The translations under genes and the position numbers were made by a program. Below the pieces are notes generated by a model. It was not told where the DNA came from. It saw nothing but the letters and a program-made list of their open reading frames with translations, and did not search any database. Positions 36,565 through 58,800 of a DNA stretch of 64,000 nt are shown piece by piece (position 1 is the stretch's first letter; the number at the start of each line of letters is the position of its first letter). Source of the stretch: Cetorhinus maximus (Eukaryota); NCBI RefSeq assembly GCF_964194155.1, contig NC_135908.1, forward strand, positions 10,788,001-10,852,000, read 5' to 3'.

Positions 36565-36705
36565 TCATGAGCTTAGTTGGTGACTCCGTGCTCCAATCGC
36601 ACTGACATGGCAAACTTCGACATCAGCCCCAAGTCTCCGCAGCTGGTCCAGCCACACCATCTGCTTGTGGGAGAGTTGGTCAGTTGGACCTTTCACTTCT
36701 GCGAG
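36565..36705 (-). CDS. FAN1: FAN1 last coding exon (catalytic EVK)
   Basis: [46 protein letters not shown]. Confidence 0.94.
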
Positions 36706-39700
36706 CTGGAAACCAAAGAGAAAAATGACAGGTGAAGAGTCTTTAAAGTGAAGCAGTCACTTCAGGTGTGACAGGATATTCAGGTAATGCAACATGTAAA
36801 GATGTATGACACACACACTGTCCTGGAGGCCAGTTCCATGGGCACAGCTACCCCAGTGTGCTCTCACTGGATAAGTGTGTTAGGGAGGATGAAAGACCTC
36901 ATAATACTGAGAAAGGAGCAGAAACCTAATTCTCCTCAGATTTCTCCTAACACGAAGGGCTGAGAAGCATTGGCTTCCACACTCTGGTTGAAATTCCAGG
37001 TTGTTCTTGCTCAAATGCAAATTAACACGAGAAAAACAAACAGGCAATAGTGGATCAGTCTTGATTCACAGAGGTTTCAGGCTAGTGAAACACCAGTCAG
37101 TCACTCACCTTGTACTGGAGGCTGTGGCTGTTCCACACAACAAGATCAGGGAGGCCTCCACGGCAGTGCCTCAGGTTTTTGGCCAGAATGCTACAAATGC
37201 CACTCAGGAACAGACCACCCAGACAGCTCACTAGACTCTGAAAACATTCCACAAACATGTCAATTCAGGACCAAAAGGGGACAACTTCATTCTAAATCAG
37301 GCAGTCCAATCACAGAAAGCTTACGGCACAGAAAGAGGCCACCTGGCCCATTGTGTCTGTGCTGGCCAAAAAACGAGCCACCCAGCCTAATCCCACTTTC
37401 CAGCATTTGGTCCGTGGCCCTGCGGGTTATGGCACCTGAGGTGCATATCCAGACACCGTCCTTTCACTGAGATTACAACAGAGTATAGTGGGTGGGAAAA
37501 TTTTAATCCTGTGTCACTGTAAACACTGGGGTACAGTATTGGTGGGGACAAGTAACTCACTGGGGTAGAAGCTGTATACCTGGGCTTGCTGAAGAGAGCT
37601 GAAGATCTCCCAGTTGATTAATGTGGCAGTTGTGTTTCTGTGATTGTTCCATACATCAGCGATCAGACTGTGGAGAGTTTCTATGGGTGCATCTTGCAGG
37701 AACTCCACCCTTGACTCAATGGGCTCCCTCCGGTGCTGATAGAAACAGTCAGTGTAGAGATCTAGAGGACAAGCCTAGACACACACAATCATTACCTTCG
37801 TACTCATCACAGTAACATAGCAATTGCCAGATGATAGAAGACTAGCTCTGTCTAGTTTGTCTTTTACCATTCTGCTGGTCGTATGGTACAATAATGGAGT
37901 TATTGACTAACCACAGTGATCAGTCTCTATCAATGAGTTTACAAGCCAGACATGAGGTGAGGAAAACCCCTAGTGGTGGAGAGCTTTGGGAACCAGAGAT
38001 TCAAAGTCACCTGTTCCTCCAGAGTCAGATACGTTCAGGATACGTCATGTCTCAAGTTACTCTGATACTGCAACCAAAATAGAATTATCGAGGGGAAATC
38101 TGATAGAGCTGTACAAGATTGACAGGTTTAAATGAGGTAGGCAGAAAAATAAGCTGTTCCTATTAATTAACTTATTGCACAAGGACCAGGGGACACTGAT
38201 TTAAAGTTTTAGGCAAAAGATACGAAGGAATGTGATGAAGAACTATTTTATGCAGCAAATGGTAATGACCTGGAACACACTGCCGCCGAGAGCGGTGAAA
38301 GTGGAGACGATCAAGGATTTCAAAAGGAAATTGGATGCAGTTGGCGCTTAAACTTGCAGGACTACAGAAGAGTGGGAGAATAGGACTGATTGCAATGCTC
38401 TCCAGAGCCGAATTGGCTCCTTCTGTGCCATAATGACTGACTCATTTGCAGCAGCATGAACTGACACTATTTAACAGCTTCCACTAGCCTCTGACAGAGG
38501 GAAGCACCTCTAACAACATGACGTTTTAGCTAAATACCTGATAGGGATTTCGAAAAACATCTGGGATTCCAGACAGAAAGATGATGTCCCAGAAGAGAAG
38601 TCCAAATAGCGTTAAGAATATGGCTCCTTCACCGTGTATTCCTGTAACAGACAGGGCAATAGATCACCACACAGTCCTTGTTCCTCAGCACCAAAAAGCA
38701 AGCAGATTTGGTGCAGTGGTTAATTACCCTGATCGAAGCCTTGCTGCCGATAGTGGGCCAGAGAAACCTCCTCCACCGAACAGATCACCGTAGAACAAGG
38801 CTCCCCCTGGCCCAGATTTGGCACTTCTCTGGTGTTCTCCATCAGAAACAAGGAGTTGCCCATCCCTGGGCACGTTCTGCCCTTTATCATCACCTAGAAA
38901 GGAAATTACAATCTAAGTTTCTAAATACTTCAGCTAGGACTCTCTCTCAGGGCATTACCATCCTGAAATAATTTGAAGGGTTAAGTAAGAGTCCCCTGGG
39001 CCAGGAAAGCAATGGTTGGTCTGGAATTCCAGGTCCGATCCTGGCCATGGAAACTCTTTCGAGTTATCAACAGTCACAGATTGCAACTCTTTCGAGTACA
39101 ATCACAGTTCTTGGTTTCCAGGAGTGGGACATGAACCCACAACCCTCTGATTCAAAGGCGAGGGTGCTATGAACTGAGCCACAATTAGCCCCAATCTCAA
39201 TGAACCGGAGAAAGGAAACAATCAGCCATAGTTCCAGCTGCAGGTGAGGAAGGTTCCTGTGAACAGATTGCACACGTCAGGTGTCCAAGTGACTGGCATT
39301 CTTTGTCACATATCTGCATCAGCACCTTCAGGAGTGAAGCTGGGTAAACGGGGGCCAATCCTCTTCCAGGGTAGGGAGAGGAGGGGGATCTGCTGGTCTA
39401 CCCATGCATTGAAATAGCAGCCGCTATGGTCCCTGACAATCAAGGGTGAATGTTTGTCACTGTTTTGCACAGACCCAGTCAGGCCTATGCTCTCAAAGTT
39501 ATGGGAATAACACAGTCAAAAAGAGTGTTAAACAAAAAATCATCCAAATTAGACTAAGAGAAAGAAAGAATGCGATGTCTAGCATTGGGTAAATTATTAT
39601 TGACCATGGGCCCCTGAGCTCCTGCCCTCACATGTGACACATCTTCCACTCTCATCACTGGCAGGTCCTGAAGAAGGTGATGCCATTTCTTGCAGCTCGG

Positions 39701-42700
39701 GGAATCATGTATCCGCATAGCCCGCTGGTATAGAGCCAGCCGATGTCCTGTGTGAACCCATACATCGTCCAAACCTTTCCGCAAACACTGGACTGCCTGG
39801 AATCCAAAATCACATGAACAGGAATCCATTCCAACAGAGTAATCCGAGGAGACAGTGAACAGAGTATGAATCAACTTCCACTGCCTGTTAAACCTTGAAC
39901 ATTCCTCAACCAGCTTACCTAATCTAGTTAATGATCAAACCTGGTTATTAAACAGCAAAATCTACCAGAATCAGAGTACTGGGTTCAATCCCCCCCCCTC
40001 TTGCCATTGCCTGTGAATGATCAATCAGAACTTGAACCTGCCCCCATCACACCAATGCAATGATGTGAAACATCAGAGGTTTTAGACAGCAACCACCCTG
40101 ACCCCTGCCCGCACTCTGTTACCTGTTCAGTCTGTTTCAAATGCTGATGGAGATTCAGACTCAATCGGTTCCACCAGCGCCCGCGGCTCGCTGGACAATA
40201 GATGCTTTGTTCCAAAAGACTTTTCAATTCTTCCACTGCCTCCTAAGAATGAGATTCAAAGACAGGGTTTAACATTCTGATACCAACAGCTTCAATCATC
40301 ACATCGAAAAATACGCTTAACTAAACAACCTGTGCAACTGCCCCCAGTCCCTGAACAGAATCCCCCTAGGCCCATACTGGCTCACCAGATCACTATACCC
40401 TGTACAAGATCACCAATTCCCCCACTGGATTGTCAAATCACTGTATTAGATCATGCTATTTCCCTATTGGGTGACTGTATCCTGTACTAGACTCCCAGTA
40501 CCAAATTATTGGATCCTTAAGCCCTGCACTAGGTCCCCATGCCAGTAACTGGATCAACACACCCTGCATTGAATCACTGGATCCCTGCACTGTACCACCA
40601 GATTACTATAACATATACAAGATCACTGAGATCCCCACTGGATCCCCAGCACTGAATTGCTGGATTATTTTACATTTTTACCTCGTACATGCGCAGTCGC
40701 TGTAAAATTTCAACCCCGCGGAATCGGATCCTTGTGTAGACCCAATCCGCAGTGAAACATCGCAGATATACCGGGAGCTCCTGATGGAACCTAAAAATTA
40801 ACCAACATTCATCAATTGCTGTAAGATGAAAAAACACTTGTCAGATATTGAATGTTTACAGTGTGCCTGTGCGAAACCAGGGATCAGACTTTGTCCTCAT
40901 GGCCCCTGGCTCAAACCTATCTGTCTGTTAGCTGTTACAGCACCTTGGCCAATTTCAACCAGGCACTGTGGGACCTAGATCCACAGCACAAAAAAGTACA
41001 GGAGCGACAGTGAACATATTACACTCTCGGGCAGTAGGCAGGAACATTGAGGGAGCTTCACTCTATCTAAGGTAGCAGGGCAGATAGATAAGGTGGTTAA
41101 GAAGGCATATGGGATACTTGCCTTTATTAGCCAAGGCACAGAATACAAGAGCAGGGACTGGAACTGTATAAAACGCTGGTTATGCCACAATTGGAGGACT
41201 GCGTGCAGTTCTGGTCACCACACTACAGGAAGGATGTGATTGCACTGTAGAGGGTGCAGAGTGATTTACCAGAATGCTGCCTGGGCTGGAGGGTCTGAAC
41301 TATGAGGAAAGATTGGATAGGCTGCGGTTGTTTTCCCTGGAGCAACGATGGTTGAGAGGGGACCTGACAGAGGTGTATAAGATTATGAGAGGCATAGATA
41401 GGGTGGATAGGAAGGCACTTTTTCCATTCGTAGAGGGGTCAATAACCAGTGGGCATAGATTTAAGGTAAGAGGCAGAAGCCTAAGAGGGGAGTTGAGGAG
41501 AAATTTTTTCACCCAGAGAGGTAGAAGTCTGGAACTCATTGCCTGAAAGGATGGTTGAGTCAGAAACTCTTGCAACATTTAAGTATTTAGATATTCACTT
41601 GCATTGCCATAGCCTCCAGGGCTATGGGCCAAGCGCTGGAAAATGGGGTGAGTGTAGTCAGACCTTTGTTAACCGGTGTGGAATGATGGGCCGAATGGCC
41701 TTCTTCTGTGCTGTAGACGTCTGAGTCTAATCCGAGGTGTACCTGCCCTGGAGCATTTGATGGAGAAGTGTAGGGGGAGCTTTACTGTGTATCTAACCCC
41801 ATGCTATACCTGTCCTGGGAGCACTTGATGGGACTTATCCAAACCTCTGCTGCTTGCAAAGGATTATGAGTCCGGTTCTCCTTTCCTGTATCCTTGCCAA
41901 CCTGCACAATGAATTCTTATTAACCATGGCCTCAGCACTAACCTACCTACCCTCTGCAACGCCCCCCTATTCTCTCACACCCACAACTATTCCAGATATG
42001 GTCTCCCTTTTGTTCACTCCACTTTGAGATGCAAAACCTTCAGCTGTTTTGTCCCAACATTCAGGAACTCTCTCCCTATTTCCAAAAAGCTCAGCCCAGT
42101 TTTGCCATGCCAGTGATCATCTCTTTAATTCTTTTATCAGTGCTGTCTCTGTGAAACACTCCGGGGACGTTTATTACATTAGAGACTCCATGTAAATACA
42201 AGGTGCTATTCTTCAGGTCTGTTTTCCCACCTACTATCTGAGCTTCTCCAAGCAGACAGGAGTGGTGCTCCCCAGTTACCTGAAATGTCAGCTCTCACAC
42301 ACTGTCAACACACAAAGTTATGGAATTAACAATACACCTTATTACAAAGCTGCACAAGGCCCTTCAATAGATCATTATTTGCCCTGGGGCGGAGGGGTTG
42401 CAGTGCTATCAAGAGAGGGGTCATTATCTCCATTGAAGGCTGTTACCACCCGACTGGGAGCATCACAGCCCCCTCGTATGCTGTGCATTCCCTCTTATTA
42501 CCTGACATCATTGCTATTTTCCAGCTGGATCCACTTCTCTCTGGCAGTTTTATAAATCTGGAGAGCATCGCTCCAGGTCCCACGGGTCATCGCTGTTAAC
42601 ATCTCAGCCAGAGAATAAGTGGCCTCAACGTACCTGTCAAGGAAGTAACAGGTCATTGTATTAAATGGCAGAAATTCTTCTTCAGAACAACACTGGGAAG

Positions 42701-45700
42701 CTTCACCCATCCACCTACACATCCAACAATCTAACTGATATAGCCATCTATTATACATCATTTAACTGGCAGTACATTGATCTTGCCATTAATTCCCACC
42801 CTGGGCGAGGCAATTATCCTGTTAACTGGATAGATGCTATACTGTATGTATTTTATTGAATAGATCAGGGTGTGGCATCACCTGAGCAGGTCATCTCTGT
42901 GCCGGAATATTTTCTTCTCCCTCAGCACGGTGTAACTGGGGAATGTGACATGACCCATGTTGGTAATGACTACGGTGGACAGCTGACTCTGGCCAGCGGC
43001 TGCCGCCTCCTCTTCATCCGTCCACTCCGTCAGATTGAAGAGTAGCAGCACCCGTGAGAACACAGCTCGGGCTGGTGCAGCAACTCTCACACAATGTCCG
43101 ACCAGTTCCTTTGTCCTGACAACACATAACACGATTAAACAAAAAGCCATTGAACACAAACAGAATGACGTAGGGTTTACAGCACAGATACAGGACATGC
43201 AGCTGGTCTGATATTTATGCTCCACATCAGCCTCCTCCCCACTCTCTTCATCTAATCGTATCAGTGTATCCTTTAATTCCTTTCGCTCTCTTGTGCTTAT
43301 GTAGCTTTCCTTTAAATGTATTGATGCTATTTGCCTCAAAGAGCAAAGAAAGGCCATCAGGCCCATGCACTGATTTTCTCTATTAGTCACCATGCAAACA
43401 ACAACAGCCCTCCCCCCTCACACCCGACCACCAACCATCTCTGGGAGTGGAAATTGCACCTTCTTCTCGTGCCGGTTAGGAGCTGCACACTGTCCCAGTT
43501 CAGCCTCCACCCCCCACATCATCCTATTCCTCCCCAGATCAGAGGCCCTTCCCCGCTGCCTCGTCCCTCCATGGAGCAGGGCCCCCAGTATCCTCCTTCC
43601 TCTCCCATGGGCAGTGTGGGCTCTGCTCTGGTCTAACTGCAGCTGGTTGCAAAGCTTAAATGGTGCCTTTTGAAAGACCTGTTGAGGATGGCGAGGCCAG
43701 GACTCGACGGGTTCTGGTTACAGCTGAAGATTGATTGCTGCTTGGCCAAACGTAACAGGGACTTCAGAATCTCTGCCCTCTGACCCTGGGGTCGCAGGTG
43801 GAAGCTTTTAGCCAATAGTTTGAGCTCAGGAGCCGACAGCAGATCCAGGGCCTCGGAAACATCGCATAGGTCTGACCCTGGGAGGGTGAAAAGAACACTG
43901 TCAGTGTTTAAATGCGCAGGGTCCTGGGAGGGTGTGGGCTGGAAACGCTGGGTAACTGGCAATCGGCTGTGGGTAATGGGTCTTGAGGAGGGGACTGTCA
44001 GTCCACTTCTCCTTGCCCCTCCATCCTGAGTCTACTCCAGATGTGTCTCAGGGAGTGACATCATGTGCCTCAGGTACATCTAGTTCAGGTACCGGAGAAA
44101 AACAAAAGGCCCTGGGGGAGAGGGGTAATAACAGAGATAAAATAAAGGAACAGACAGAGTCTAAAGTGATTTGCAAAAGAAGCAAATGTGACGTGAGAAA
44201 AAACTTTTTCACACAGCGAGTGGTTCGGGTCTGGAATGCACTGCCTGGAAGTATGGCGGAGGCAGGTTCAATCGAGGCATTCAAGAGGGCATTAGATGAT
44301 TATTTGAATAGAAACAATGTGTAGGGGTATAGGAAAAAGGCAGGGCAATGGCACTAGGTCACAATGCTCATTTGGAGAGCTGGTGCAGCAGACATGATGG
44401 GCCGTATGGCATCCTTCTGTGCCATTAAAATTCTGAGTGTCACTGGGAGAAAGGTTACCAAAACCATCTTTTAAACTAAGCTTTTGAGAAGGTTCTTACA
44501 GGTGAAGGGAAAAGGGGATTGGTTTGGGGAGAGAGTTCCAGAGAGTGCAGTCAAGGTGGCTGAAGATGCTGCCCTAAGGGAGCGGTGGGGTGGGCTTCAA
44601 AATAGGCTTGAGTTGAAGGTTCAAACAGTCCTTCAGCAGGTGCAAAGGCCATGGGGAGAGCTGGAGATTAAGATGATTTGGCATTTAGTAATGCAGCTTT
44701 CTTCAATGTTCTGATTAAAACCTGCCCTTGGATCCCATACCTGTCTGTAACAAGCCTGCGAGCCTCAGCTCCTCAATGCTGGGGGTCAGGTCCAGACCAA
44801 TCTCAGGATAATTCAGTTTTGTTATTTTCAGCCAATTCAGCTTCCGTTGAAAGAGTCGCACATAGAGCTTCTGGCCAGCAACTGTGGATGAGATGGAGCA
44901 CCCAGTAAGTACAGCAACAGCATCAGACCCAAACAGCAGGATAAATTGAGATGGTTGTTAAAAACACACACGGGAGTCTTGGTTTTATGCCTTTATTACC
45001 TCCAGACTCAACTATTCTAAATCTGATCTCCCACGTTGTATCATCTGTAAACTTGTAAGTCATCCAAAACTCTGCTGCCCATGTCTTAAATCACAACAAG
45101 TCCCGTTCACCCATCACCCCTGGGCTCCTTGACCTGCATTGGTTCGCGGTAAAGTAACATCTTAATTTTAAAATTCTCATTTTTGTTTTCAAATCCCTCC
45201 TTATCTCTAATTTCTTCCAGTCTCGCAACCCTCTGAGATATCTGCGTTCCTGTAATTTTGACATCTTATGCATTTCCAATCACAATTGTTCCACCATTGG
45301 CGACCGTGCCTTCAGTTGCCTGGGCCCCAAGCTCTGGAATTCCCTCCCTACACTTTTCCGTTTCTCTACTTCAATTTCCTACTTTAAGACACTCCTTAAA
45401 ATTTACATTTTTGACCAAGCTTTTGATCATCTGACCTAATATTTCATTATGTGGCCTGTGTCATACTGTTTTATAATGAAGCAGCTTTAGATGTTTCATT
45501 ACATTAAAGGTGCTATATAAATACAAGTTGTTATTAGAGTACAGTGAACCTTGATAAAATACTGCTTAGACCTCAGCTGCGGTAATGCGTCCATTTCTGG
45601 ACACCATACTTTAGAATGTCATGGCCTTGGAGAGGATGCAGAGGAAATTTACTAGAGTGATAGCAGGGATGAGGCACTTCAGTAATGTGGAGAAATGAGA

Positions 45701-48094
45701 AAAGCTATGGTTGTTATCCTTACAGCACAGGTTAAGGGAAGATTTCGTAGAGGTGTTCAAACTGAGGGATTTTGAGAGCAAATAAGGATAAACTATTTCT
45801 AGTGGCAGGAAGGTCAGGAATCAGAGTACGCGGATTTAAGGTGAATGACCTGGATAGCTGAGGAGATTTGTTTAATGCACTGAGTTATTATGATTGGAAT
45901 GTGATGTCTGAAGGGCAACACAAGCAGATTCAATCAACATTCGAAAGAGAATTTGAAAACACCTGAAAAATTGTAGAACTATGGGGAAAGAGCAGTGAAG
46001 TAGGACAAAATAGCTCTGCCGAAAAGGTGGCACAAGCTCGACAGGCCAAACGATCTTCTTTTCCCTTGAGATTTTCAGAACTAGATCTGAGATAAAGCCA
46101 ACTGAAGTCAGAGTTCAGCAACCTGTGGCTCTGGAGCCACAGTGGCTCATTGAGGCCTTGTTTGGCTCCCAACTTTTGATTGATCAAACCCATTTTGATG
46201 GTAATTAAATGGCTTGTCTCTTTGTTTTTTAAACTTTATTAACATTGTACTTCTGAGAAAGTATCATTTAATGAACCTTTTTGTAAAAAACCTTAAAAAC
46301 GCTGAAATGATTGTCTTGTTTCTCATTAGTATCGGCATTTGAGTAACAGCAATGTGGGGACTGCATTTTTGACTACATTTAAATTTGAAAATTTAAAAGT
46401 GGCTCTTACGAATTAAAAACAAAATATGCTAACATACAAGTTCAGCAGATAATAGGGAAGGCAAATGGAATGTTGGCCTTTATTTCAAAGGGAATGGAGT
46501 ATAAAATTAGGGAAGTCTTGCTAAAACTGTACAAGACACTAGCTAGACCATACCTAAGGTACTGTGAACAGCTTTGGTCCCCTTATGGAAAGATATACTG
46601 GCATTAGAGGCTATCTAGAGAAGCTTCACTGGCTTGATCTCGAGTATGGAGGGATTTTCTTATGAGCAGAGATTGAGTAGGTTGGGCCTGTACTCATTGG
46701 GGCTTAGAAGAATGAGAGGCGACCTTATTGAAACATAAGATTCTTAGGGGGCTTGACAGGGTGGATGCTGAGAGGTTGTTCCCCCTTGTAGGAGAGCCTA
46801 GGACCAGAGGGCATAATCTCAGAGTAAGGGGGCGCCCATTTAAAACAAAGACGAGGAGGAATTTCTTCTCTAAAGGGCAGTGAATCTGTGGAATTCTTTA
46901 TCGCAGAGGGCTGTAGAGACTGGGTCGTTAAGTATATTCAAGGCTGAGATAGACAGATTTTTAATCAGTAAGGGAATCAATCAAGAGTTATGGAGAAAAG
47001 GCAGGAAAGTGGAATTGAGCATGATCTGATCAGATCAGCCATGATCTCATTGAATGGCAGAGCAGACTCGATGGGTCGAATGGCCTACTTCTGCTCCTGC
47101 ATGTTATGGTCTACTATGGATATTGGAGATCTGGAAAGTTAAATTGGATTCAAACCGTTAACCTGTTTTTTTTTTCTCTCTGTCCACAGATGCTGCCAGA
47201 CCCGCTGAATTTTTACAGCACCTTGTTTGTATTGTCTGTGCCATGAGGGTTTTGTCGACCCCTTGTACTAATAATGGCTGTTCTACCACACAGCCATTCA
47301 ACAGTAAGAGTCACCAACACAAAACACCATGTTTTGATTGATCAGAAGTACAGGGACGCAAATAAATCCAGGCAAATCTGCCTGTATTTCAGTCGAACAA
47401 GTCTTCACCCCCACTGACCATGAGTGTCACCCAGAATATTTAACCATGGAATGGATCCCAGAGCCTGATCCGGTTCTCACTCAATGTCCATGGGTCAGCC
47501 CCTGCTCTGCGGTACTGAGGCCAACTGCAGCACCCGAGCTGGATTCATTCAGGTCAGTGCGGCTTCAGGCCACTCGCTGCTCCATTCACCTGAGAGTTTC
47601 TGGAATGTTCGCAGCCAGTGCTGGTCCTCCTCATTGAAAAGTTCTTTATCTTCACTCCCCAGAACTGCCTCCAGCACCATCAGGAAATTGCTCAGGTAAT
47701 AGGGGAGCGGGAAACGGTCCTCACCTTCTGCCTGTTCCGGCGCCTCATCTCCCCGGCCTGAAGCCTCAGCGGGGGCCGCCGCTCCAGCCCCACTGAGGCA
47801 ACCCGCCTCCGGGCCCGGCTCTAACTCCGAGGCCGGGGCAGGGGCCGCGGGCGCTTTCCGATATCGCCTCGAGAGCTTGGACCACCGGCGGCTCCCGCTC
47901 CCCTCGCCCTCCTGCCCCGATTTCTCCTCAGCCCCTGAGCCACTGTTGCCCGTGGGGAGAGCGGCCTCTGGTTCTGCCGCTGTCTCCGGCAGGCCGCGGT
48001 CTGAGGCTTGAGGACCGCCCCCGGCTGAGGCGTTGCTTCTTCGAGCTCGGAGAGAAAGGCCAGAGCGCGGCCTCTTCTTGACCGGTGAAAACAT
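36565..48094 (-). CDS. FAN1: FANCD2/FANCI-associated nuclease 1 (VRR-NUC, PD-(D/E)XK), about 779 aa
   Basis: 13 exons (minus): 48094-47590, 44881-44741, 43877-43679, 43115-42882, 42633-42502, 40790-40682, 40242-40123, 39796-39632, 38893-38728, 38641-38538, 37774-37580, 37237-37109, 36705-36565; total 2340 nt, GT-AG and in phase. Motifs [24 protein letters not shown] (SAP), SRGRWW, GIHGEG, GGLPDL...EVKGP are present. Confidence 0.95.
37109..37237 (-). CDS. FAN1: FAN1 coding exon 12 (catalytic PD)
   Basis: [43 protein letters not shown]. Confidence 0.94.
37580..37774 (-). CDS. FAN1: FAN1 coding exon 11
   Basis: [30 protein letters not shown]...[12 protein letters not shown]. Confidence 0.92.
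38085..38440 (+). mobile_element. CR1 3' fragment
   Basis: atctgatagagctgtacaagat...acctggaacacactgcc. Confidence 0.65.
38538..38641 (-). CDS. FAN1: FAN1 coding exon 10
   Basis: [35 protein letters not shown]. Confidence 0.93.
38728..38893 (-). CDS. FAN1: FAN1 coding exon 9
   Basis: [19 protein letters not shown]...[19 protein letters not shown]. Confidence 0.92.
39632..39796 (-). CDS. FAN1: FAN1 coding exon 8
   Basis: [55 protein letters not shown]. Confidence 0.92.
40123..40242 (-). CDS. FAN1: FAN1 coding exon 7
   Basis: [40 protein letters not shown]. Confidence 0.93.
40340..40665 (+). repeat. Degenerate old tandem repeat
   Basis: Recurring gatcac...ccctg(t/c)ac...tggat motifs. Confidence 0.5.
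40682..40790 (-). CDS. FAN1: FAN1 coding exon 6
   Basis: [36 protein letters not shown]. Confidence 0.92.
41070..41725 (+). mobile_element. CR1 LINE 3' fragment
   Basis: [40 protein letters not shown]. Confidence 0.9.
42502..42633 (-). CDS. FAN1: FAN1 coding exon 5
   Basis: [44 protein letters not shown]. Confidence 0.9.
42882..43115 (-). CDS. FAN1: FAN1 coding exon 4
   Basis: [26 protein letters not shown]...[10 protein letters not shown]. Confidence 0.93.
43679..43877 (-). CDS. FAN1: FAN1 coding exon 3 (SAP domain)
   Basis: [27 protein letters not shown]...GLAILNR; AG/GT boundaries. Confidence 0.92.
44155..44435 (+). mobile_element. CR1 3' end
   Basis: [19 protein letters not shown]...FKRALDDYL plus 3' UTR. 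Confidence 0.8.
44741..44881 (-). CDS. FAN1: FAN1 coding exon 2
   Basis: ccacag|...G|gtatgg; [46 protein letters not shown]. Confidence 0.93.
44990..45535 (+). mobile_element. L2 LINE 3' fragment
   Basis: [29 protein letters not shown]; tail aaggtgctatataaatacaagttg. Confidence 0.75.
45540..46070 (+). mobile_element. Old CR1 3' fragment
   Basis: ttagacctcagctg...ttctggacaccatac...gaggatgcagagg. Confidence 0.65.
46430..47112 (+). mobile_element. CR1 3' fragment
   Basis: gggaaggcaaatggaatgttggcc...gaatgagaggcgaccttattgaaac; tail gaatggcctacttctgctcct. Confidence 0.88.
47590..48094 (-). CDS. FAN1: FAN1 coding exon 1 (basic NLS-like start, no UBZ finger)
   Basis: ATG at 48094, [15 protein letters not shown]...[15 protein letters not shown]...FQKLS G|gtgaat; in-frame TGA upstream at 48122-48124. 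Confidence 0.88.
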
Positions 48095-48099
48095 GCCGG

Positions 48100-48645
48100 C
48101 GACCCACACCGGCCCCGCCAATCACAACCCGGGCCCCGCCCCACACCGGCCCCGCCAATCACAACCCGGGCACCGCCCATCAAAGCCCGGGGCCTGCCCC
48201 CGCCAATCACAGCCCCGGCCCCACCCCATACCGGCCCCGCCCCACACCGGCCTCGCCAATCACAACCAGGGCCCTGCCCCACCACAGCCCGGGCCCCGCC
48301 CCACACTGGTCCCCGCCCATCACAGCCCGGGCCCCGCCCCCGCCAATCACAACCCGGGCCCTGCCCCACACCGCCACCCCCCGCCCATCACAGCCCCCTA
48401 GGCCTCGCCAATCACAACACGGGCCCAATCCCTCACCGGCCCCCGCCAATCACAACCCGGGCCCCGCCCCACCCCGGCCCCCGCCAATCACAACCCGGGC
48501 CCCGCCCCACCCACACCGGCCCCCGCCAATCACAACCCGGGCCCCGCCCCACACTGGACCCGCCAATCACAACACGGGCCCCACCTATCACAGCCCAGGC
48601 CCAGTCCTGCCAATGGATTGGTTGAGAAGGCGGGAGAAGTGGTAA
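48100..48645 (-). promoter_or_regulatory. FAN1 proximal promoter: CpG-rich tandem array of CCAAT and GC boxes
   Basis: About 13 imperfect copies of a ~37-bp unit ccggccccgCCAATcacaacccgggCCCCGCCCcaca, directly upstream of the ATG. Confidence 0.75.
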
Positions 48646-49710: not shown

Positions 49711-49860
49711 TTAAAGTTTCAGCTTGCTTGCTGAAAGCTCTCTGTGTTTGTTCTGCTTCTTGGCTCCGATCTTGGCTCCTTTCAACTCAGCTTTCACTTG
49801 GTCTTGTAACTGGGAGAAAAAGGCCTTTGAAGAGCGTAGAGTTTTGTCTTTCCCTTCATC
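49711..49860 (-). CDS. MPHOSPH10: MPHOSPH10 last coding exon
   Basis: [22 protein letters not shown]...ELSASKLKL*. Confidence 0.93.
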   Translation of the reverse strand, partial: DEGKDKTLRSSKAFFSQLQDQVKAELKGAKIGAKKQNKHRELSASKLKL

Positions 49861-52800
49861 CTTTTAATAGTTAAAAATAATTGAGTTAGAGTCCACTTTT
49901 GAAAATTTGGCTTTTCCTTCCTGATGAATTACATTGGGAAAATAAAGGCATGAGAATACAGATTGTTCCATACAATGCTGCATTGTGCCAGGGTCTACTG
50001 TAATAAACAGGAGCTCCTATTCAGGGTACTGATGCCTCAGGCAGTATCTAAAAGGAGTGACTTTAGAAACTCTTATCTAAAGGAGTATATAACCCAGTAA
50101 ATGATGATTAAGTGAGAGGTTGCATTCAAGAACGAGCAGGTAATGCCGAAGTATGATGCAATTTGGGCAAGCAAACTGATCCAAGGTTTTGAGATAAAAT
50201 AGCGAATGCTAGAAATACACAATGGGTCAGAAAGGGGAGGTCAGTATTCCAGTCAGCTCTTCATACAAGGACCCAACCATAACATTAACCTATCTTTTCT
50301 CTCTCAGATGGTGACAGCCTGCTGTGTAGTATTTTTTTGAAACTATAGGGAATTTGAAGGGGAATGGAAGCAAGTTAAATGACACTGATGGTCTGTTTGA
50401 AATTGCAATGCTGTACATGGAAGGAACTTGGCCTGAACATTTTGTAAAGGAAACATTTGCTGGCAATTTATTCAGTCACTCCTTGCTGTGAACAGGAACA
50501 ATGAGACTCACAGGGTGATTATCTGGCGAAGGAAGCAATCATTGAAAGGAAATAAAACATTCTAAAATTAATTTAATCTCTCCTTCTGACATATTCAACA
50601 GCCTCATTACACTGCTCCAATGTTCATCACCATACGACAGTACTCACCTTCAGCAGCGTCGCCTTTCCTTCCTGGGTCAATTTCCTCACTTTTTCAGCAT
50701 TCTTTTCCTTCACTCGTTTATTACTCAGCTTCACATTCAGCTTCTCCAATACTTTCTGACGCGCCTCCTTCTCTCGTAATCGGAGACGTTTCAGTTTTTT
50801 CTTCTTCCTTCTCTCCCGTTTCTTGTCTGTTGCTGTCTTTTCGGTGTCTCCTTGGAGGTCCCCAGCTCGACCCTTCTCCTGTAATTATCAGCCCAATCAG
50901 CACTGCGACACTAACTGCAGGTCTTGCATCTCATTCAATACAATAATAAACCAGCTTCCATACAAAACAGCCTCGATAATAAATACAATAAACAGCCTCT
51001 ATAATAATAGCAATAAGTCAGCTTTCATAGAAAAACACATCTTACCCATCATCGCACCCCACCCCCCTCCCACCCCGTAGAGCCTCACTGGTGCTGCAAA
51101 TGCGATGAATCTCAACCATAATCCCAATCCTGATCCCGTTCTCATTCAAAGTGTGTATACTTATTTTCCAGCATGGAGTCACTAACACAATTAGGAGCAG
51201 AGGTACAAGCTTGGGTTCCTTCTCTAAAACCATAAGCGTAGAGAGTAATGTCACATTCCTTCCCCAGCTGGTATCAGTTAAAGGCTGGGCACTGCGGGGC
51301 TCAGTGCCATTCCATGGAGGGGCTTAGTGCTGTTTGCCTTTACATTACCTTCCTCTTTAGTTTCTTACCTTGACTTCTTCTGGTGCCAGTAGAGTGGCAT
51401 CACTGACATTCACTGGTGCCACTTCCTCCATACTAATGGACGGCAGGTTAGAGACCACCTTCACTTCAGGCACAGGCTGACAAAAGAAAAAAAGTGTCAT
51501 TACAAACTCACCCCTGACTACCAGGAAAGTTTAAGCAACCTTTGCCCTCCTACCTTGCTCCAAGGCCAGCTGAGGACACAGTTCAATGTGCAGAGATGCT
51601 CAAAGTGACCTGTCCTCCAGATATGGCAGCAGACAGAAACTGAATTTTGCACAGCACAAAGATCAGAGAGTCAGAGTGTTGTAGACTGCAGGATTAAACC
51701 TGGCCTTAGGGCAAGTGTGTGAGGGTCACAAACTGACTGCATTCAAACTGCAAGTGCAGTCCACTACACAAAAACAAAGTTTAAATGTCAAGGGAAATAC
51801 TGAGCACTTGAACTGTAGACTTTATGTTTTGGCGCCAGAGTCTGAACATTCAATTCTACTCCAGCAGTGTGGGGAATGAGTGCCTATGATTTTACCAGTT
51901 CTCTCTGACAATCTGCGCTCTGATAGTCTTCCCTCCTGAGACCTAACTCTTGTTGTCTACAGTACCACAGGTATTGCTCACATGGTACCACATCCAGGTA
52001 GTAATTCTTCCTGTGTGTGCTGAGATTAAGAGACATCCAATTACATTTTCCAGCAGGGGTCACAGGGTAATCCAAAGGAGCAGGAACTTTAGTTACTTTC
52101 CCCTTTACCAGGGTGCTGAGGCGCATTGTGGTTTCCCCCCCTGCTGCAATCAGCTAAATCAGCACAATCCAGAAATAGTGCGTGAGATCTTGCTGATCTG
52201 AATTGCTTCAGCAGCCAGCCAGTTCCAGTCACACTGAATGTAAAACATCAAACAACGCAACAGGGGTAATGACCATATCCAGTGGATGTCAGTGTGGCCC
52301 GGGAGTAGACAACAGCTGTGCCCTTGCAGCGGCGGAGTTAGGCAGTCCATGCTTGTCTCCAGTTAACCTCCAATGTTACACCATTTCCTTTACTTACCGG
52401 TTTTGGTGTGAACTGGAAGTTTGAGAGTGCGTCTAGTTTGAGGAAAAGGGAATCCATCAACTTCTGGATCTCAGCATGCTGCAGGTTTTCCTCCGTTTCA
52501 GACTTTTGCTGCAATAATAAAACTTTAATTTAAAGATCTGACAGGCACACAGCCAACCAACAGTTAGCTGATCTCTCAGACTCATATGACAACGGACTGT
52601 AAATCTAACATTTGACTCTCAGCAACTACATTTATTAATTACAACTTAACCGTTCCAAATATCACATTACTATTAAACAAGCAACTATACATATTCCTCT
52701 CCAAACTCTCTATTGACAAAGTCCAAATGTTTTAATTTTTGTCAAATATGTCCTCTACTCAAGGTGCTGACTCTCATTGGGGGACAGTTCCTGAAGGTGC

Positions 52801-55800
52801 TGACTCTCACTGGGGGAACAGTTCCTGTAAGTGCTGACTGTCACTGGGGGACAGTTCCTGAAGGTGCTGACTTTCACTGGGGGACAGTTCCTGAAGGTGC
52901 TGACTCTCCCTGGGGGACAGTTCCTGAAGGTGCTGACTCTCCCTGGGGGACAGTTCTTGAAGGTGCTGACTCTCAATGGGGGACAGTTCCTGAAGGTGAT
53001 GACTCTCAATGGGGGACAGTTCCTGAAGGTGCTGACTCCCACTAGGTGGGGTGGGATAGTTTTAATGGAACAGTTCTTGTTTATTACCATACCCATATGC
53101 TTAGCCTGCGTATGTGAAAAAAATGTGTCGCAAAAGCATTCAAAGTTTTTCCTGTTCATGGGATGTGGGAATCGCTGGTTAGGCCAGCATTTATTGCGCA
53201 TGCCTAAATGCCCTTGAGAAGGTGATGGTGTGCTGCCTTCTTGCACTGCCTCAGTTCATGTGTTGTAGGAACACCCACAGTGTTGTTAGGAAGGGAGTTC
53301 CAGGATTTTGTGCAACTGTGCCAGGCATCATTGCTGAGCCCGATTCTGGTCCAATTTCCTGTGTTTAATCTAGATGTTGAAATTGTTGTAATTCCATTCA
53401 AATTAATCCTTTGTTCAAACCTCATCTAATCCCCAAGGTGTTTGTGCCTCCTGAGATCACCTAAGATTATTACCTGAGTTTGCTTTAAATATTCTTGCTC
53501 GTAGACTTCAGCCAGACTCAGCTTGCTTTTCTCATGGTCCAAGGTGAGTCGCTTTTTGTATTCAAAGACCTCATCTTTTGGTTTTTCTTTACGTACAACA
53601 TCGTCCCAGGCCTGTAACACAGATCACATGATGCTTACCCATCAACAACTGATTAATGGCCATTCTTAAGTGGCTGTAATCAACAGAACTTACAAAACAG
53701 AAATAGTGCAGAGAACTGGACCCAACCGATTCCAATATGACTTCAGTTAAAAGGAACCTTGTGGAAAATCCACTGTTTAAGACAGAGTAAACATATCAAT
53801 ACTGAACATTCACCTCATCAATCCTAGCTGAAACAGAAAATGCTGCACATGCACATCAACACACAAAGTGAAGAGGCAATGAAACACTTGGGATGGGGAC
53901 CTCATCATAGCTCCAGCGGCCACCCAAACTGGTCCACCTGCTAACTGCACTTCTTCCTTTTCACCATCAGCCTGATTGACCTGCAATACATATTCTAGGA
54001 TTTTGTGTTATTTCTGATTGGAGGAAAGATAATTTATCCCAAAAGGGGACATTCAGTCCTTGTCACCAGAATCAAAGTTAGGAACTGGTTTTCCACAGCT
54101 CCATTTTCCTTCTTTCTTGCCCCATCTTTAACCACAGCAATTAGAATATTAAATCTAATGCCAACCACATGCAGCAAAGTGTTCCCTTTCCATAACTTCC
54201 TCCACACTGGCACATTACATTAATGCTTATCTCAAGGTCACAGCCTTGCCTTTGATCTGATCAATTGGCCTCGTTTATCCTGTTCATCATTTAGAATAGC
54301 TCAATGAACGCCTCCCACACTGATCTCTCTGCTCTTGCACACAAAATGGAGCGATATATTCTCAATCTAATTACAGACTCCAGGGCCAAGAAAGATCTAC
54401 TTTTAATTAGAGATGGTAGTAATTCAAGCATACAATTCATTATAAATTTGACATATATGTGAATCATTAATCCCACTTCAATAACTCCACTACTTTCCAT
54501 TCTTTACAACATCTTCATTTTCCACTCTATTAGCTGCAGTTGTCTTTTGTGTTTTCCACATTTTGTTCTACTTTAGATTAAGAATCTATTTTCTTGCTTT
54601 TCACGTTTGGTTTAAATGGAACCACATTTTCTCTGTAGCACTCCAGTGGGTGAAACGTGTGAATACACCACACTTGGCAAGCACTAGCTGCCCACATAAT
54701 TAGGCACCAATGCACAGTTAGAATATTCCAAGCCATCAGTTGCTAGGCATACTAGGGTACGTGGCACTAGCTGTTAGGTTGGAGATTTTCCTGAGTAACT
54801 TATTTCACAGCTTCTTGCTGTCAGTTACTCAGGAAAATCTCCAACCTAACATAAGCTGGTCCAGGAGTTACTGACAAAGCCTTCCACTGACCTGGTCTTT
54901 AATCCTCTGCATAATAACATCCTCCAGTTGAAGTGTTGTCTCCTCAGTGATGACAGGAGCTGGGAACAGAGATCAGAAATTAGTACAAACTCAATACAAA
55001 GCAAACTATAACACAACTTTAATGTTTCAGGTCAACGATCCTTCATCAGAACTATGAATTCTGATAAAAGATCACATACTTGAAACGTTAACTCCCTTTC
55101 TCGCTCTACAGATGCTGCCTGGCCTGCTGAGAATTTCCAACATTTTCAGTTATAATTTCAGCAAAGCTTAATGCTAGGCCAGTAAACACACTATCTCATA
55201 CATCCAGACATACCAAAACCAAAATGAGTGGTCTTTGCCAACCCTCCCGCTTCCCCAGTTTCAAGGTGAGTGTGCAAGGGCAAGACATACCCTTTCTGAC
55301 TGCATTGTCAAACAGGAGGTCCTCCTCCAGCAGGCTATTCTCTGGTCGTTTCTGGGCACTGACCTCTCCCAGGAGCTGCCAAGGCTTCTGTTCCAAGGCC
55401 GATTTCTCCAGCTGCTGGATTTGTGTGTTTAGCTAGAGGAAACAAAACACAACGCTGGTTACCCGTGGAATTACACTGCATAGAAATTACAGGCTGGACA
55501 CCAGCCATTCACCCAAGCAGCCCAAGTCGATGCTTATCCTCCACACAAGTTATTCTAATCCCATGTCACTGTTCTTTTCCTTCAACCACTAATCCAACCC
55601 ATTCCTAAACTAACTCTGCAACCTCTCAACCCTGAGTAAAAATGTTTCTCCTGCTCTCTGTCCCAATAATTTTACATTTAATCCTACATGCATATCCCCT
55701 CAATCACCAAGAACAGTCTTTCAATCTACTCTGTCCAATCCCTTCATAAGTTTAACCTCTTGTAACAAAAACAGTCCAGATTTTTCTAGAGCAAAATATC

Positions 55801-58800
55801 GCAGATGTTGGAGATCTGAAATGAAAACAGAAAACATTGGAAATACTCTCAACAGGTCAGGCAGCATCTGTGGAGAGATAAAAACACCTGATTTTTTTTC
55901 AAGGCTTTGTATTAAGACTTCTAACATCATCTCTTGCTTCCCCACAAATTTAAAATTCTCACACTTATGTTTAATTCCCTTCATAGCTGTTACCCTCCTT
56001 ATCTCTGCAACCTTTTCAGCCATACACCATCCACCCCAAAAATCCCTTTCCCCCAACTGCAACCCTTAGTGTCTCCCCTACTCCCATCACCCCACTATTG
56101 GTAGCCATACCTTCAGCCATATAAGCTCTAAGCTCTGGAACTCCTCTCTAAATCTCTTCATCTGCAAGACGCTCCCTGACCAAACTTTTGATCATCTTCC
56201 CAATAACTCCTTTGGGGGCTCTTTTATATCTCAGGGAAGTGTGTTGACATTTTCTTTCAGCTGAAAGTGGGTGTGGATATTGTGCCCTGTGCCTGAATTA
56301 ATAATCATTCCAATAATCACCTTTTCTTGGCGTTTTTCGAAGGCTGATTTTGTCTCTTCTGGCTTCTTTCCTCCTATCTCATTGGCCAATTCTTCCACAT
56401 CACTGTCATCTGACAGGTTAAAACTAACTTTCTTGTGGGCCCTCTTGGCCTCTAGGCTACTCTCGGATTCAGCCATCTCCTCCTCCTGGTCTCTGGGTTA
56501 CAGAAAAAAAGAAACAAATTAATACAACAAATAAATATGGGATCTACACTCTAGTTTATAAGTAGAATACATCTATTTTCAGCTTGTACTTATGTTGTTA
56601 TGTGCTATTAAGCATGATACCACAAATCAAATTCTTACAGATTACCAGGGGGGTGTGTGTGACACAGACCAATTGCTGGTGCTGTGCAGCGTATAATTCT
56701 TTCAATAGCTTCTACAGGACTCTGTTGCCAGTGGTTCTGAGGACCTGTGAAGCCAGTAGCCCAGACTGCATCCCATCGCTAATCTCATTTAGACCGTTAG
56801 TTGGGCTTCTACATCTAGTCTCAGTGCCATGACTAATTGTACATGAATAAAGAGGTTCAGCAATCCAGATGCATATCATTAAAAGCCAAAGCAGAGAAAG
56901 AACAGTAAGATCAATGGGTGCTGGACTTCATCATAAGGTACAGAATAAAAACCAAGACAGTACCCATTGCAGACACACATTGCTGGTAGTCTTCAACTGG
57001 AGGAAAGTCCAGCAACAGAAACCTGGATCATATATGGAACAAAGGAAATGGCAAACAAGGGTTATATTTGCAGGTGATGAGGAGGATAAGGGCTAATCTG
57101 TTACCCACTGTTGACCAGTTGGCGGACACTCAGTTTCACCTAAGACAGGAAGAGTCACCTGAAATGGATCATTCTCAGGATGACAGGCTGTTACTAGTGG
57201 GGTACCACAAGGATAAGTGCTAGGCCCACAGCTGTTCACAATCTATATAAATGATTTGGATATGGGAACAAATTGCAATATTTCCAAATTTATTGATGAC
57301 ACCAAACTGGGTGGGAACGCAAGTTGTGAGGAGGATGCGAGGAGGCTTCAAGAGGACTTGGACAGGCTAAGTGAATGGGTTAGAACATGGCAGATGGAAT
57401 ATAACGTGAATAAATGTGAAGTTATTCACTTTGGTAGGAAAAACAGAAAGGCAGAATATTTCTTAAATGTCGAGAGGTTGGAAAGTGCAGTTTCCAAACA
57501 GACCTGGGTGTTCTTGTTCATGAGTCACTGAAAGTTAGCATGCAGGTGCAGCAAGCAATTAGGAAGGCAAATTGTATGTGTTTGTTGGCCTTCATCGCAA
57601 AGGGATTCAAGTACAGAAGTAAAGATGTCTTGCTGCAGTTACATAGAGCCTTGGTGAGACCTCACCTGTAGTATTGTGTACAGTTTTGGCCCCCTTATCT
57701 ATGGAAGGATATACTTGCCACAGAAGGAGTGCAACAGAGATTCACCAGGCTAATCCTGGGATGTCAGGATTGTTTTATGAGGAGATATTGAGCAAACTGG
57801 GTCGGTATTCTCTAGAGTTTCGAAGAATGAGAGGTGATCCCATTGAAACATTCAAAATTCTTACAGGGTGCGACAGGGTGGATGTAGATAGGATGTTTCC
57901 CCTGGCTGGTGAGTCTAAAACCAGGGAACATAATCTCAGGATAAGGGGAGGCCATTTAGGACTGAGATGAGGAGGAATTTCTTCACTCAGAGGGTGGTGA
58001 GTCTTTGGAATTCTCCACCCCAGAGGGCAGTGGAAGCTCAATCACTGAGCATGTTCAAGACAGAAATTGATAGATTTCTGGAGGCTAATCCAGGGATATG
58101 GGGATAGTGCGGGAGAGTAGAGTTGAGGTAGATGATCTCATTGAATGTCAGAGCAGGCTCGCTGGGCCAAATGGCCTACTCCCGTTCCTATGTTGAAATG
58201 TCAGAGGAATGTCAGTGATGCTGGAGTTGGATCCAGTGCCTAAGGGTGGGGGTAGGAGGAAATGGAGGAAACAACTTCAGAAAACATACTCATCGATTTC
58301 TTCCCCCTCCTCAAATTTTTCTGGCTCTGGTTCCCCTTCTGCCTCAATGCTTTCTTTCTCCTCATCGCCATCTTCTTCTATAGGTTCCTCATCCATGACT
58401 GGGTTGAAGAAATCCTTGTACTGCAGGTTCCTGGAACTCTTGGTCTGACAAACAGCAAACAAAATTCAAACATGTAAAAACAGTAATACAACAGAGTTCC
58501 TTAATCTGATCTTAAGTCACAGAACATCACTTTGCACAACCTGCAGCACTGGGTACATCCTGCACACTGGCCACAGCTGACCTCTATCATCCCTTACTCA
58601 GAGTTGTAAAATTCAGCTGTCTGACTGTGTGCTCTCTCATCCTGCCTCTCCAATCCACAACATTGATATCTACTGAAGAGATTATACTCTCGCTGTTACA
58701 CTCTTCTCAAGGTGTCTTTGTAATCCAGATGTGTGTGAGGGGGAGACTGAGAGCAAGAGAAAGGAAGAGAAAACACAAGAGAACAAACATCTCTGAGATA

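Follow-up and report, generated by a model that had tools for sequence, protein, structure and literature searches.

Can a vertebrate FAN1 nuclease remain coupled to FANCD2, PCNA and MLH1 when the N-terminal motifs that dock it are missing? The question is raised by a stretch of 64,000 nucleotides from Cetorhinus maximus (contig NC_135908.1, positions 10,788,001 to 10,852,000), here called the window, in which an earlier reading of the letters (the original prediction) had recognized a FAN1 gene with an intact nuclease but without the UBZ4 finger, the PIP motif and the MLH1-binding SPYF motif. The gene is present, and these motifs, together with the KEN box, are absent from all 18 chondrichthyan species compared; two short N-terminal motifs are retained, the FANCD2 pocket that one of them may occupy is conserved, and the residue equivalent to human R507 is Gln in the window protein.

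FAN1 is encoded by 13 GT-AG exons on the minus strand, with its stop at 36565, and the open product of 779 amino acids is letter-for-letter the NCBI record XP_078388536.1 (P0125), annotated for Cetorhinus maximus; the length of about 779 residues, the intact exons and the intact catalytic motif had all been foreseen correctly. The domains FAN1_HTH, Fan1_SAP, FAN1_TPR and VRR_NUC follow in that order, each above the Pfam cut-off, and D721, E736 and K738 correspond to human D960, E975 and K977, invariant in 16/16 chondrichthyan and 100/100 bony-vertebrate rows. This core is shared with human FAN1 (1017 residues; PDB 9GY0, 9CL7, 4RI8 and others) at E 1.7e-218, and the equivalents of Y374, R420, R424, K425, Y436, R679, H718 and R752 are also kept. 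When the C. maximus genome was searched with VRR_NUC and FAN1_TPR, the sole match among the best candidates scored was the FAN1 locus, with no second copy. Judged by its sequence, the gene is a single-copy, intact FAN1 orthologue at the expected place of the species in the tree, and its nuclease is intact and putatively active.

Coding exon 1 specifies an N-terminus of 131 residues rich in glycine, alanine and proline (G/A/P), from a part of the gene with 70% GC, and then enters the HTH domain. The description originally given of this exon, an open frame of 168 codons preceded by an in-frame TGA, with one Cys and without CxxC, PIP or SPYF, was confirmed: the 131 residues hold a single Cys (C99), the whole exon a single His (H159), and neither CxxC, SPYF, a PIP-like motif nor KEN occurs in the N-terminus. 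As no Pfam model scores the FAN1 UBZ above its cut-off, even in coelacanth, a profile was built from 101 FAN1 PIP+UBZ N-terminal stretches. It recovered the coelacanth, amphioxus and hagfish controls, which belong to its training set, with E-values between 3e-25 and 4e-14; when the window was translated in six frames, the best match had E 0.23 and no finger was seen. A 41-residue coelacanth PIP+UBZ query gave two matches in the genome, both at E > 6 and neither a finger, in a weak test that missed the WRNIP1 finger too. Since another contig of the C. maximus genome still carries that WRNIP1-type UBZ4 intact, preceding an AAA ATPase, the UBZ loss is specific to FAN1.

To place the loss among vertebrates, a search with the FAN1 core was used, which returned 893 proteins; the best 120 were taken (20 chondrichthyan and 100 bony-vertebrate rows, the latter mostly tetrapods) and cluster members were added. 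Eighteen chondrichthyan species (sharks, rays and chimaera) are represented by one protein each; duplicate isoforms, models truncated at the N-terminus (P0008, P0010, P0048, P0122, P0123) and skate contigs without a species name were left out, and the bony set held 93 of the 100 rows, 7 being left out where the anchor pattern failed. Alignment of the N-termini across sharks, rays, chimaera and bony vertebrates showed a class-wide loss of motifs that bony vertebrates keep. The CxxC of the UBZ is found in 0/18 chondrichthyan species vs 88/93 bony proteins, the SxYF of the MIP box in 0/18 vs 93/93, a PIP-like motif in 0/18 vs 78/93 and the KEN box in 0/18 vs 69/93. The gene had been presented as a single oddity, which it is not, and neither the missing KEN box nor the change at the R507 equivalent had been noticed. 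Three of the five bony proteins that miss the UBZ pattern begin within the finger, and the other two are penguin records (P0110, P0111) in which Arg takes the place of the first UBZ4 Cys; the finger may have been lost in nature, or the records may be wrong. The N-terminus measures 44-281 residues in chondrichthyans, the chimaera sharing the short layout of sharks and rays, against 330-426 in bony vertebrates (about 370 in human); its sequence is 52% G/A/P and cannot be aligned apart from two conserved islands. The linker has in places grown into lineage-specific tandem peptide repeats (P0007, P0009, P0012, P0013), reaching 281 residues in Stegostoma, and in Narcine only 44 residues are left, with neither island.

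The direction of the change can be read from the outgroups, as UBZ and SxYF are present in hagfish, amphioxus, the hemichordate Ptychodera and the echinoderms Acanthaster and Diadema. The FAN1 core tree, built by a quick method, tracks the species tree and unites the chondrichthyans with a Shimodaira-Hasegawa-like approximate likelihood ratio test (SH-aLRT) value of 99; UBZ loss requires two changes on it, one in chondrichthyans and one in a lamprey model (P0282). We are nearly certain, on these alignments, that the loss of UBZ4, PIP, SPYF and KEN is real, derived and class-wide in chondrichthyans, and because the tree groups them and the chimaera has the same short layout, the loss is placed before the chimaera-shark split. 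That split dates from about 400 million years ago. The lamprey FAN1 (Lethenteron reissneri isoform X3) shares the absence of UBZ4 with the shark but, unlike it, keeps a PIP-like motif, SPYF, the MIM core, KEN and Arg507; its loss, seen in a single isoform model, is on the tree an event separate from the chondrichthyan one. In the same model the stretch from SAP to TPR is missing as well, so that it may be a skipped-exon isoform, and hagfish shows the reverse mix, with the UBZ kept, Gln at 507 and a degenerate MIM. Against over-reading the loss stands the wide set, in which the UBZ pattern occurs in only 32/126 representatives of at least 600 residues, many of them partial; UBZ-less FAN1 is evidently common outside vertebrates. 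A review describes the FAN1 motifs as conserved in multicellular eukaryotes (PMC7990447), and no paper on chondrichthyan FAN1 was found in the literature searched, most subscription papers lying outside its coverage. The sequences are already public, and in that literature the class-wide motif loss appears to be without a published account.

Taking these results together, we favour, as somewhat more probable than not, an enzyme deprived of UBZ, PIP, SPYF and KEN that would be recruited through its SAP domain, hold FANCD2 by a lone DIP-box and be weakly coupled to PCNA and MLH1. Most of an ancestral N-terminus of about 390 residues would have been deleted on the chondrichthyan stem, and what was left would have drifted into G/A/P-rich repeats around the two islands. 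Recruitment to crosslinks would proceed by SAP-DNA binding, on the model of UBZ mutants from mouse and human: the UBZ is reported as dispensable for crosslink resistance and for the fast phase of recruitment in mammalian cells (PMC4803051), and it is because these mutants keep both that we infer a SAP-driven route. FANCD2 would be touched at one point, through L13; an Arg-to-Gln substitution that followed in the elasmobranch stem lineage would blunt stimulation by PCNA, as R507A and R507H do in human FAN1; the reading of ubiquitinated PCNA at stalled forks, which is reported to need PIP plus UBZ (PMC5648898), would be lost; and MLH1 would be bound weakly at best and little sequestered.

The first island, with the consensus KRPxxxLSL[RK] in the chondrichthyan alignment, bears directly on FANCD2. 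In a cryo-electron microscopy preprint (10.64898/2026.02.24.707417), two contacts are reported between human FAN1 and FANCD2. One is made by the UBZ, which touches FANCD2 directly and not the attached ubiquitin; the other is made by L17, a leucine that serves as an anchor, while R15 engages D667. The role of ubiquitin reader given to the UBZ in the original prediction does not agree with this source. The conclusion of that prediction, that shark FAN1 is uncoupled from FANCD2, was overstated, as the residues just after KKRPR match the DIP-box, the second of these contacts. Window L13 satisfies all ten published DIP-box rules (a-j, as read here with the +/-7 window summed and VILMFWY as hydrophobic residues). 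It stands in the same register after KRPR as the human anchor, on comparison with the coelacanth sequence P0017 and with the human N-terminal sequence. The rules are passed in 13/18 chondrichthyan species, against 3.3 expected from shuffling the first 22 residues only, and in 52/63 bony proteins; a null in which the whole N-terminus was shuffled (p about 0.00-0.03) was discarded as too lenient and replaced by the former. LSL is retained in 15/18 species amid flanks that cannot be aligned, and in 8/18 an R-L-S-x-K/R has the spacing of USP1 R22/L23/K26.

The partner is conserved as well. Among the 40 of 120 listed FANCD2 proteins that were aligned (13 chondrichthyan, 27 bony), the equivalents of D667, E750, E751 and K561 are kept in 13, 13, 12 and 13 of the 13 chondrichthyan proteins, and FANCD2 was found in the C. 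maximus genome, where the E750/E751 pair was read directly. A co-evolved change in its UBZ-binding surface was also sought: nine positions differ between the two groups, nearly all conservatively. In most chondrichthyans the motif likely grips FANCD2 as a DIP-box. It shares with the DIP-box proteins FAN1, CtIP and USP1 (10.64898/2026.02.24.707417) the K/R-flanked leucine in an N-terminal tail and rules a-j; in human FAN1 the UBZ provides another contact, while the shark protein is predicted to have the DIP-box alone. Structure prediction added little: residues 1-128 have pLDDT < 50 and no secondary structure in an AlphaFold2 model that is poor throughout (mean 46, nuclease included; 18-sequence alignment) and that we left unused for any fold search or claim of disorder, and when FANCD2 596-845, for which the Carcharodon protein stood in, was modelled together with FAN1 1-32, without alignments and on a tool unproven on peptides, the score was 0.00 and is counted neither way.

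Several observations weigh against a working DIP-box. The residues of island 1 are also basic and nuclear-signal-like, and the same residues are reported as a D-box of the anaphase-promoting complex/cyclosome (APC/C) (human 14-17; PMC3777502); RxxL is found in 15/18 species and the fuller RxxLxxxx(N/D/E) in 2/18, and window R10xxL13 fits the D-box core. The DIP rules, taken from a single preprint, are permissive enough to admit 479 of 5,700 human nuclear proteins, and the acidic pocket of FANCD2 is reported to serve USP1 and CtIP too. Two skates and Narcine are without the leucine motif, Carcharodon and Mustelus each miss one rule, and hagfish has the UBZ yet no motif passing the rules. Moreover, human UBZ mutants that retain R15/L17 are reported to form no foci after mitomycin C (MMC) (PMC5648898), and for this reason a lone DIP-box may be too weak. 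A first rival, in line with the original prediction, has the enzyme fully uncoupled, both islands being import signals or a degron and no contact with FANCD2 or MLH1 working. In its favour, both islands are K/R-rich, with K[KR]x[KR] in 10/18 species and RxxL in 15/18, skates retain KRPR but not the leucines, the window remnant of island 2 has Arg at the critical L155 position, and the UBZ mutants lose MMC foci despite their DIP residues. However, import signals need neither the leucines of LSL nor those of the [KR]LS[RK] of island 2, and these are kept in 15/18 and 17/18 species within sequence that cannot otherwise be aligned; the KEN box, partner of the D-box, is lost; and the FANCD2 pocket is conserved, though USP1 and CtIP use it too. 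We hold this full uncoupling to be doubtful, although it is the rival that fares best.

The favoured reading, with its lone DIP-box, further supposes that PCNA acts weakly on the shark enzyme. Human R507 is reported to bridge PCNA D232, R507A and R507H being refractory to PCNA (PMC12078661), and the N-terminal PIP is described as the other PCNA contact (10.1101/2024.10.09.617442). The window residue aligned to R507, a Huntington modifier site at which a human variant hastens the disease, is Gln263. The equivalent is Gln in 15/17 elasmobranch species, the exceptions being Pristiophorus with Lys and Mobula birostris with Arg. It is Arg in all 100 of the top-scoring bony rows, in chimaera, lamprey, amphioxus and hemichordate, and in echinoderms; because the chimaera and the outgroups have Arg, the change is placed on the elasmobranch stem. 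PCNA in the C. maximus genome keeps the D232 equivalent, located with the help of the neighbouring V233 and P253. With Gln at 507 and both PIP and UBZ gone, the PCNA link of the window protein is predicted to be weakened. The case from residue 507 is tempered by the fact that Arg is not universal, with Lys in the notothenioid Pogonophryne albipinna (P0272) and Pro in the bat Rhynchonycteris naso (P0273), that hagfish has Gln despite its UBZ, and that Mobula birostris has Arg. The equivalent of R982 is Gln in 9/16 chondrichthyan rows and that of R706 is His in 8/16, and 22 of 265 positions near-invariant in bony vertebrates are changed in chondrichthyans; since other DNA-contact residues drift too, Gln at 507 may reflect general relaxation.

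Some further substitutions were noted around these sites. Both P0272 and P0273 keep the UBZ. Window Q743 (exon 13) corresponds to the human DNA-contact residue R982, which is Arg in 100/100 bony rows, and N281 (exon 3/4 junction) to the dimer-interface K525, with Asn in 10/16 rows; loss of dimerisation is reported to rescue the toxicity of MLH1-free FAN1 (PMC8324060).

For MLH1, the original prediction had named an SKLSRRY remnant as all that survives, and this was upheld. In this second island of the window protein, the L159 equivalent is the one MLH1-contact residue kept, positions 155, 152 and 150 being R, G and G. A hydrophobic residue is found at the L152 equivalent in 1/17 chondrichthyans vs 96/96 bony proteins and at the I150 equivalent in 0/17 vs 94/96. 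L155 and L159 are reported as required for MLH1 binding (PMC8324060), residues 145-151, whose I150 and L152 sit in hydrophobic pockets, as raising the affinity about 500-fold (PMC13473659), and loss of the SPYF region as abolishing MLH1 binding in cells (PMC8424649). The shark protein is probably far less coupled to MLH1, with weak binding at best, in keeping with the partial loss first proposed. Two facts pull the other way: the L155 equivalent is Leu or Ile in 9/17 chondrichthyan species (96/96 in bony proteins), and MLH1 of the C. maximus genome retains the complete set of seven hydrophobic residues in its S3 pocket.

The retained S3 pocket also belongs to a second rival, which we consider unlikely, in which FAN1 is rewired but fully coupled: nearby changes would restore PCNA stimulation, a short MIM would hold MLH1, and repeat stabilising would be normal. 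It can point to the arginines gained at 244 and 249, within the inner pincer loop, and to the five of the 22 changed near-invariant positions that fall within residues 244-263, two of them to Arg, and the MIM core alone is reported to bind MLH1 at micromolar levels (PMC13473659, PMC8324060). By our own count, however, only 2 of about 9 near-invariant sites are changed within the loops as defined in the literature, with no clear excess, and the D232 equivalent of PCNA is unchanged. On the MLH1 side, residues 120-140 are reported as absolutely required for binding in cells (PMC8424649), and in the C. maximus genome Gly replaces MLH1 E629, the residue that bonds FAN1 R145 in the human structure (exon L028:1555-1719; the numbering assumes that chain 9WOX_A is residues 495-751).

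That the losses are an artefact, a UBZ-bearing GC-rich piece having been collapsed or sitting in an unannotated upstream exon or a second gene, is very improbable and already largely refuted: the N-terminal part does border on a GC-rich tandem array which none of the listed contigs crosses in full, and some chondrichthyan models (P0008, P0010, P0048) are visibly truncated, but the same layout, with the first motif joined straight to the remnant, recurs in 18 species from many assemblies, 2.4-kb Logan contigs carry a whole 705-residue skate protein with it, 47300-48132 is covered gap-free by contigs of X1 and X3, runs of one sample that may be the source of the assembly itself, the ATG lies only about 1.5 kb from the end of the Mpp10-family gene upstream, and the window holds no UBZ-like frame. 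Contigs of two other organisms (X7 and X16, RNA by guess) also track exon 1 with only 9-12-nt indels and depart from it precisely at 47590, the donor position, which hints weakly at a short exon that is spliced.

Having set the artefact aside, we return to the nuclease with a lone DIP-box and compare it with known systems. The original prediction had likened it to fission-yeast and bacterial FAN1, and the likeness holds insofar as the enzymes of Schizosaccharomyces pombe and Pseudomonas aeruginosa are also described as nucleases without UBZ or PIP (PMC7990447, PMC4201288), the shark protein matching PDB 4R89 and 5Y7G at E about 6e-26. The resemblance is convergent: those lineages are without Fanconi machinery (stated for S. 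pombe, PMC7990447), whereas the shark loss is secondary, in an animal whose genome keeps FANCD2, MLH1 and PCNA. Next to human FAN1, the shark protein lacks the PIP (I30/F34), UBZ4, SPYF and KEN, has a reduced MIM, and carries Gln at 507, Asn for K525 and Gln for R982. It resembles a natural combination of the separation-of-function alleles engineered in mouse and human (C44A/C47A, MIP/MIM, R507A/H), but by deletion rather than point mutation, with Gln rather than A or H at 507, and fixed across a vertebrate class. We advance only tentatively the bolder claim that sharks and rays possess a natural triple separation-of-function FAN1, docked on FANCD2 by the lone DIP-box, not activated by PCNA and not sequestering MLH1. 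If it is true, a clade with very long-lived species would have managed for hundreds of millions of years with a FAN1 that lacks its whole repeat-stabilising arm, and it becomes testable whether this arm is a dispensable add-on and how repeats stay stable without it. Chondrichthyans show which FAN1 contacts a vertebrate can lose, the survivors pointing to those under strongest selection, and the retained island 1 offers the newly proposed DIP-box evolutionary support independent of the human structure. The finding surprises less than it might: crosslink resistance of mouse cells was known not to depend on the UBZ, and the finger is also missing from many FAN1 models of non-vertebrates.

Table 1. 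Position of the FAN1 exons, motifs and adjoining elements in the window.
Feature	Coordinates	Strand	Details
GC-rich tandem array	48103..48602	-	CCAAT-box/GC-box units, directly 5' of FAN1 ATG
In-frame TGA	48122..48124	-	10 codons 5' of FAN1 ATG
Coding exon 1	47590..48094	-	ATG 48094; 505 nt, 168 codons + 1 nt; phase-1 GT donor
Retained motif 1 (K6-R19)	48038..48079	-	basic nuclear-signal-like stretch; L13 codon 48056-48058
Retained motif 2 (SKLSRRY)	47861..47881	-	residues 72-78; degenerate MIM remnant
Exon 2	44741..44881	-	141 nt
Exon 3	43679..43877	-	199 nt; SAP domain and PCNA 'pincer' loops
Codon 263, CAA (Gln)	43735..43737	-	aligned with human residue 507
Exon 4	42882..43115	-	234 nt
Exon 5	42502..42633	-	132 nt; TPR start
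Exon 6	40682..40790	-	109 nt
Exon 7	40123..40242	-	120 nt
Exon 8	39632..39796	-	165 nt; skipped in 724-aa NCBI isoform X2 (P0001)
Exon 9	38728..38893	-	166 nt
Exon 10	38538..38641	-	104 nt
Exon 11	37580..37774	-	195 nt
Exon 12	37109..37237	-	129 nt; catalytic D721 codon starts 37147
Exon 13	36565..36705	-	to stop; catalytic E736 (codon starts 36699) and K738

As regards the surroundings, the 606 bases 5' of the FAN1 ATG hold 12 ATTGG (CCAAT-box) and 10 GGGCGG motifs, against a window-wide CCAAT/ATTGG density of 2.6 per kb, and the tandem array there is likely the FAN1 promoter, an unusually multiplied promoter-like element. A high-copy repeat starts at about 48630, 5' of the array. Further upstream on the FAN1 strand lies the Mpp10-family gene (matches 51351-60565, minus strand), whose last exon we read in the frame ending near 49711, and a gene with a 3-PAP domain (MTMR10-like; 28948-29322, plus strand) converges on the FAN1 3' end; the order MPHOSPH10-FAN1-MTMR10 is presumably the vertebrate synteny. 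Within the gene, the intron 3 donor (window 43678-43671) reads GTCTTTCA, far off consensus, and the same junction is used in the NCBI model. The only N-run in the window is at 568-767, and upstream of the Mpp10 matches a 35-bp unit is repeated in tandem about 20 times (60732-61425).

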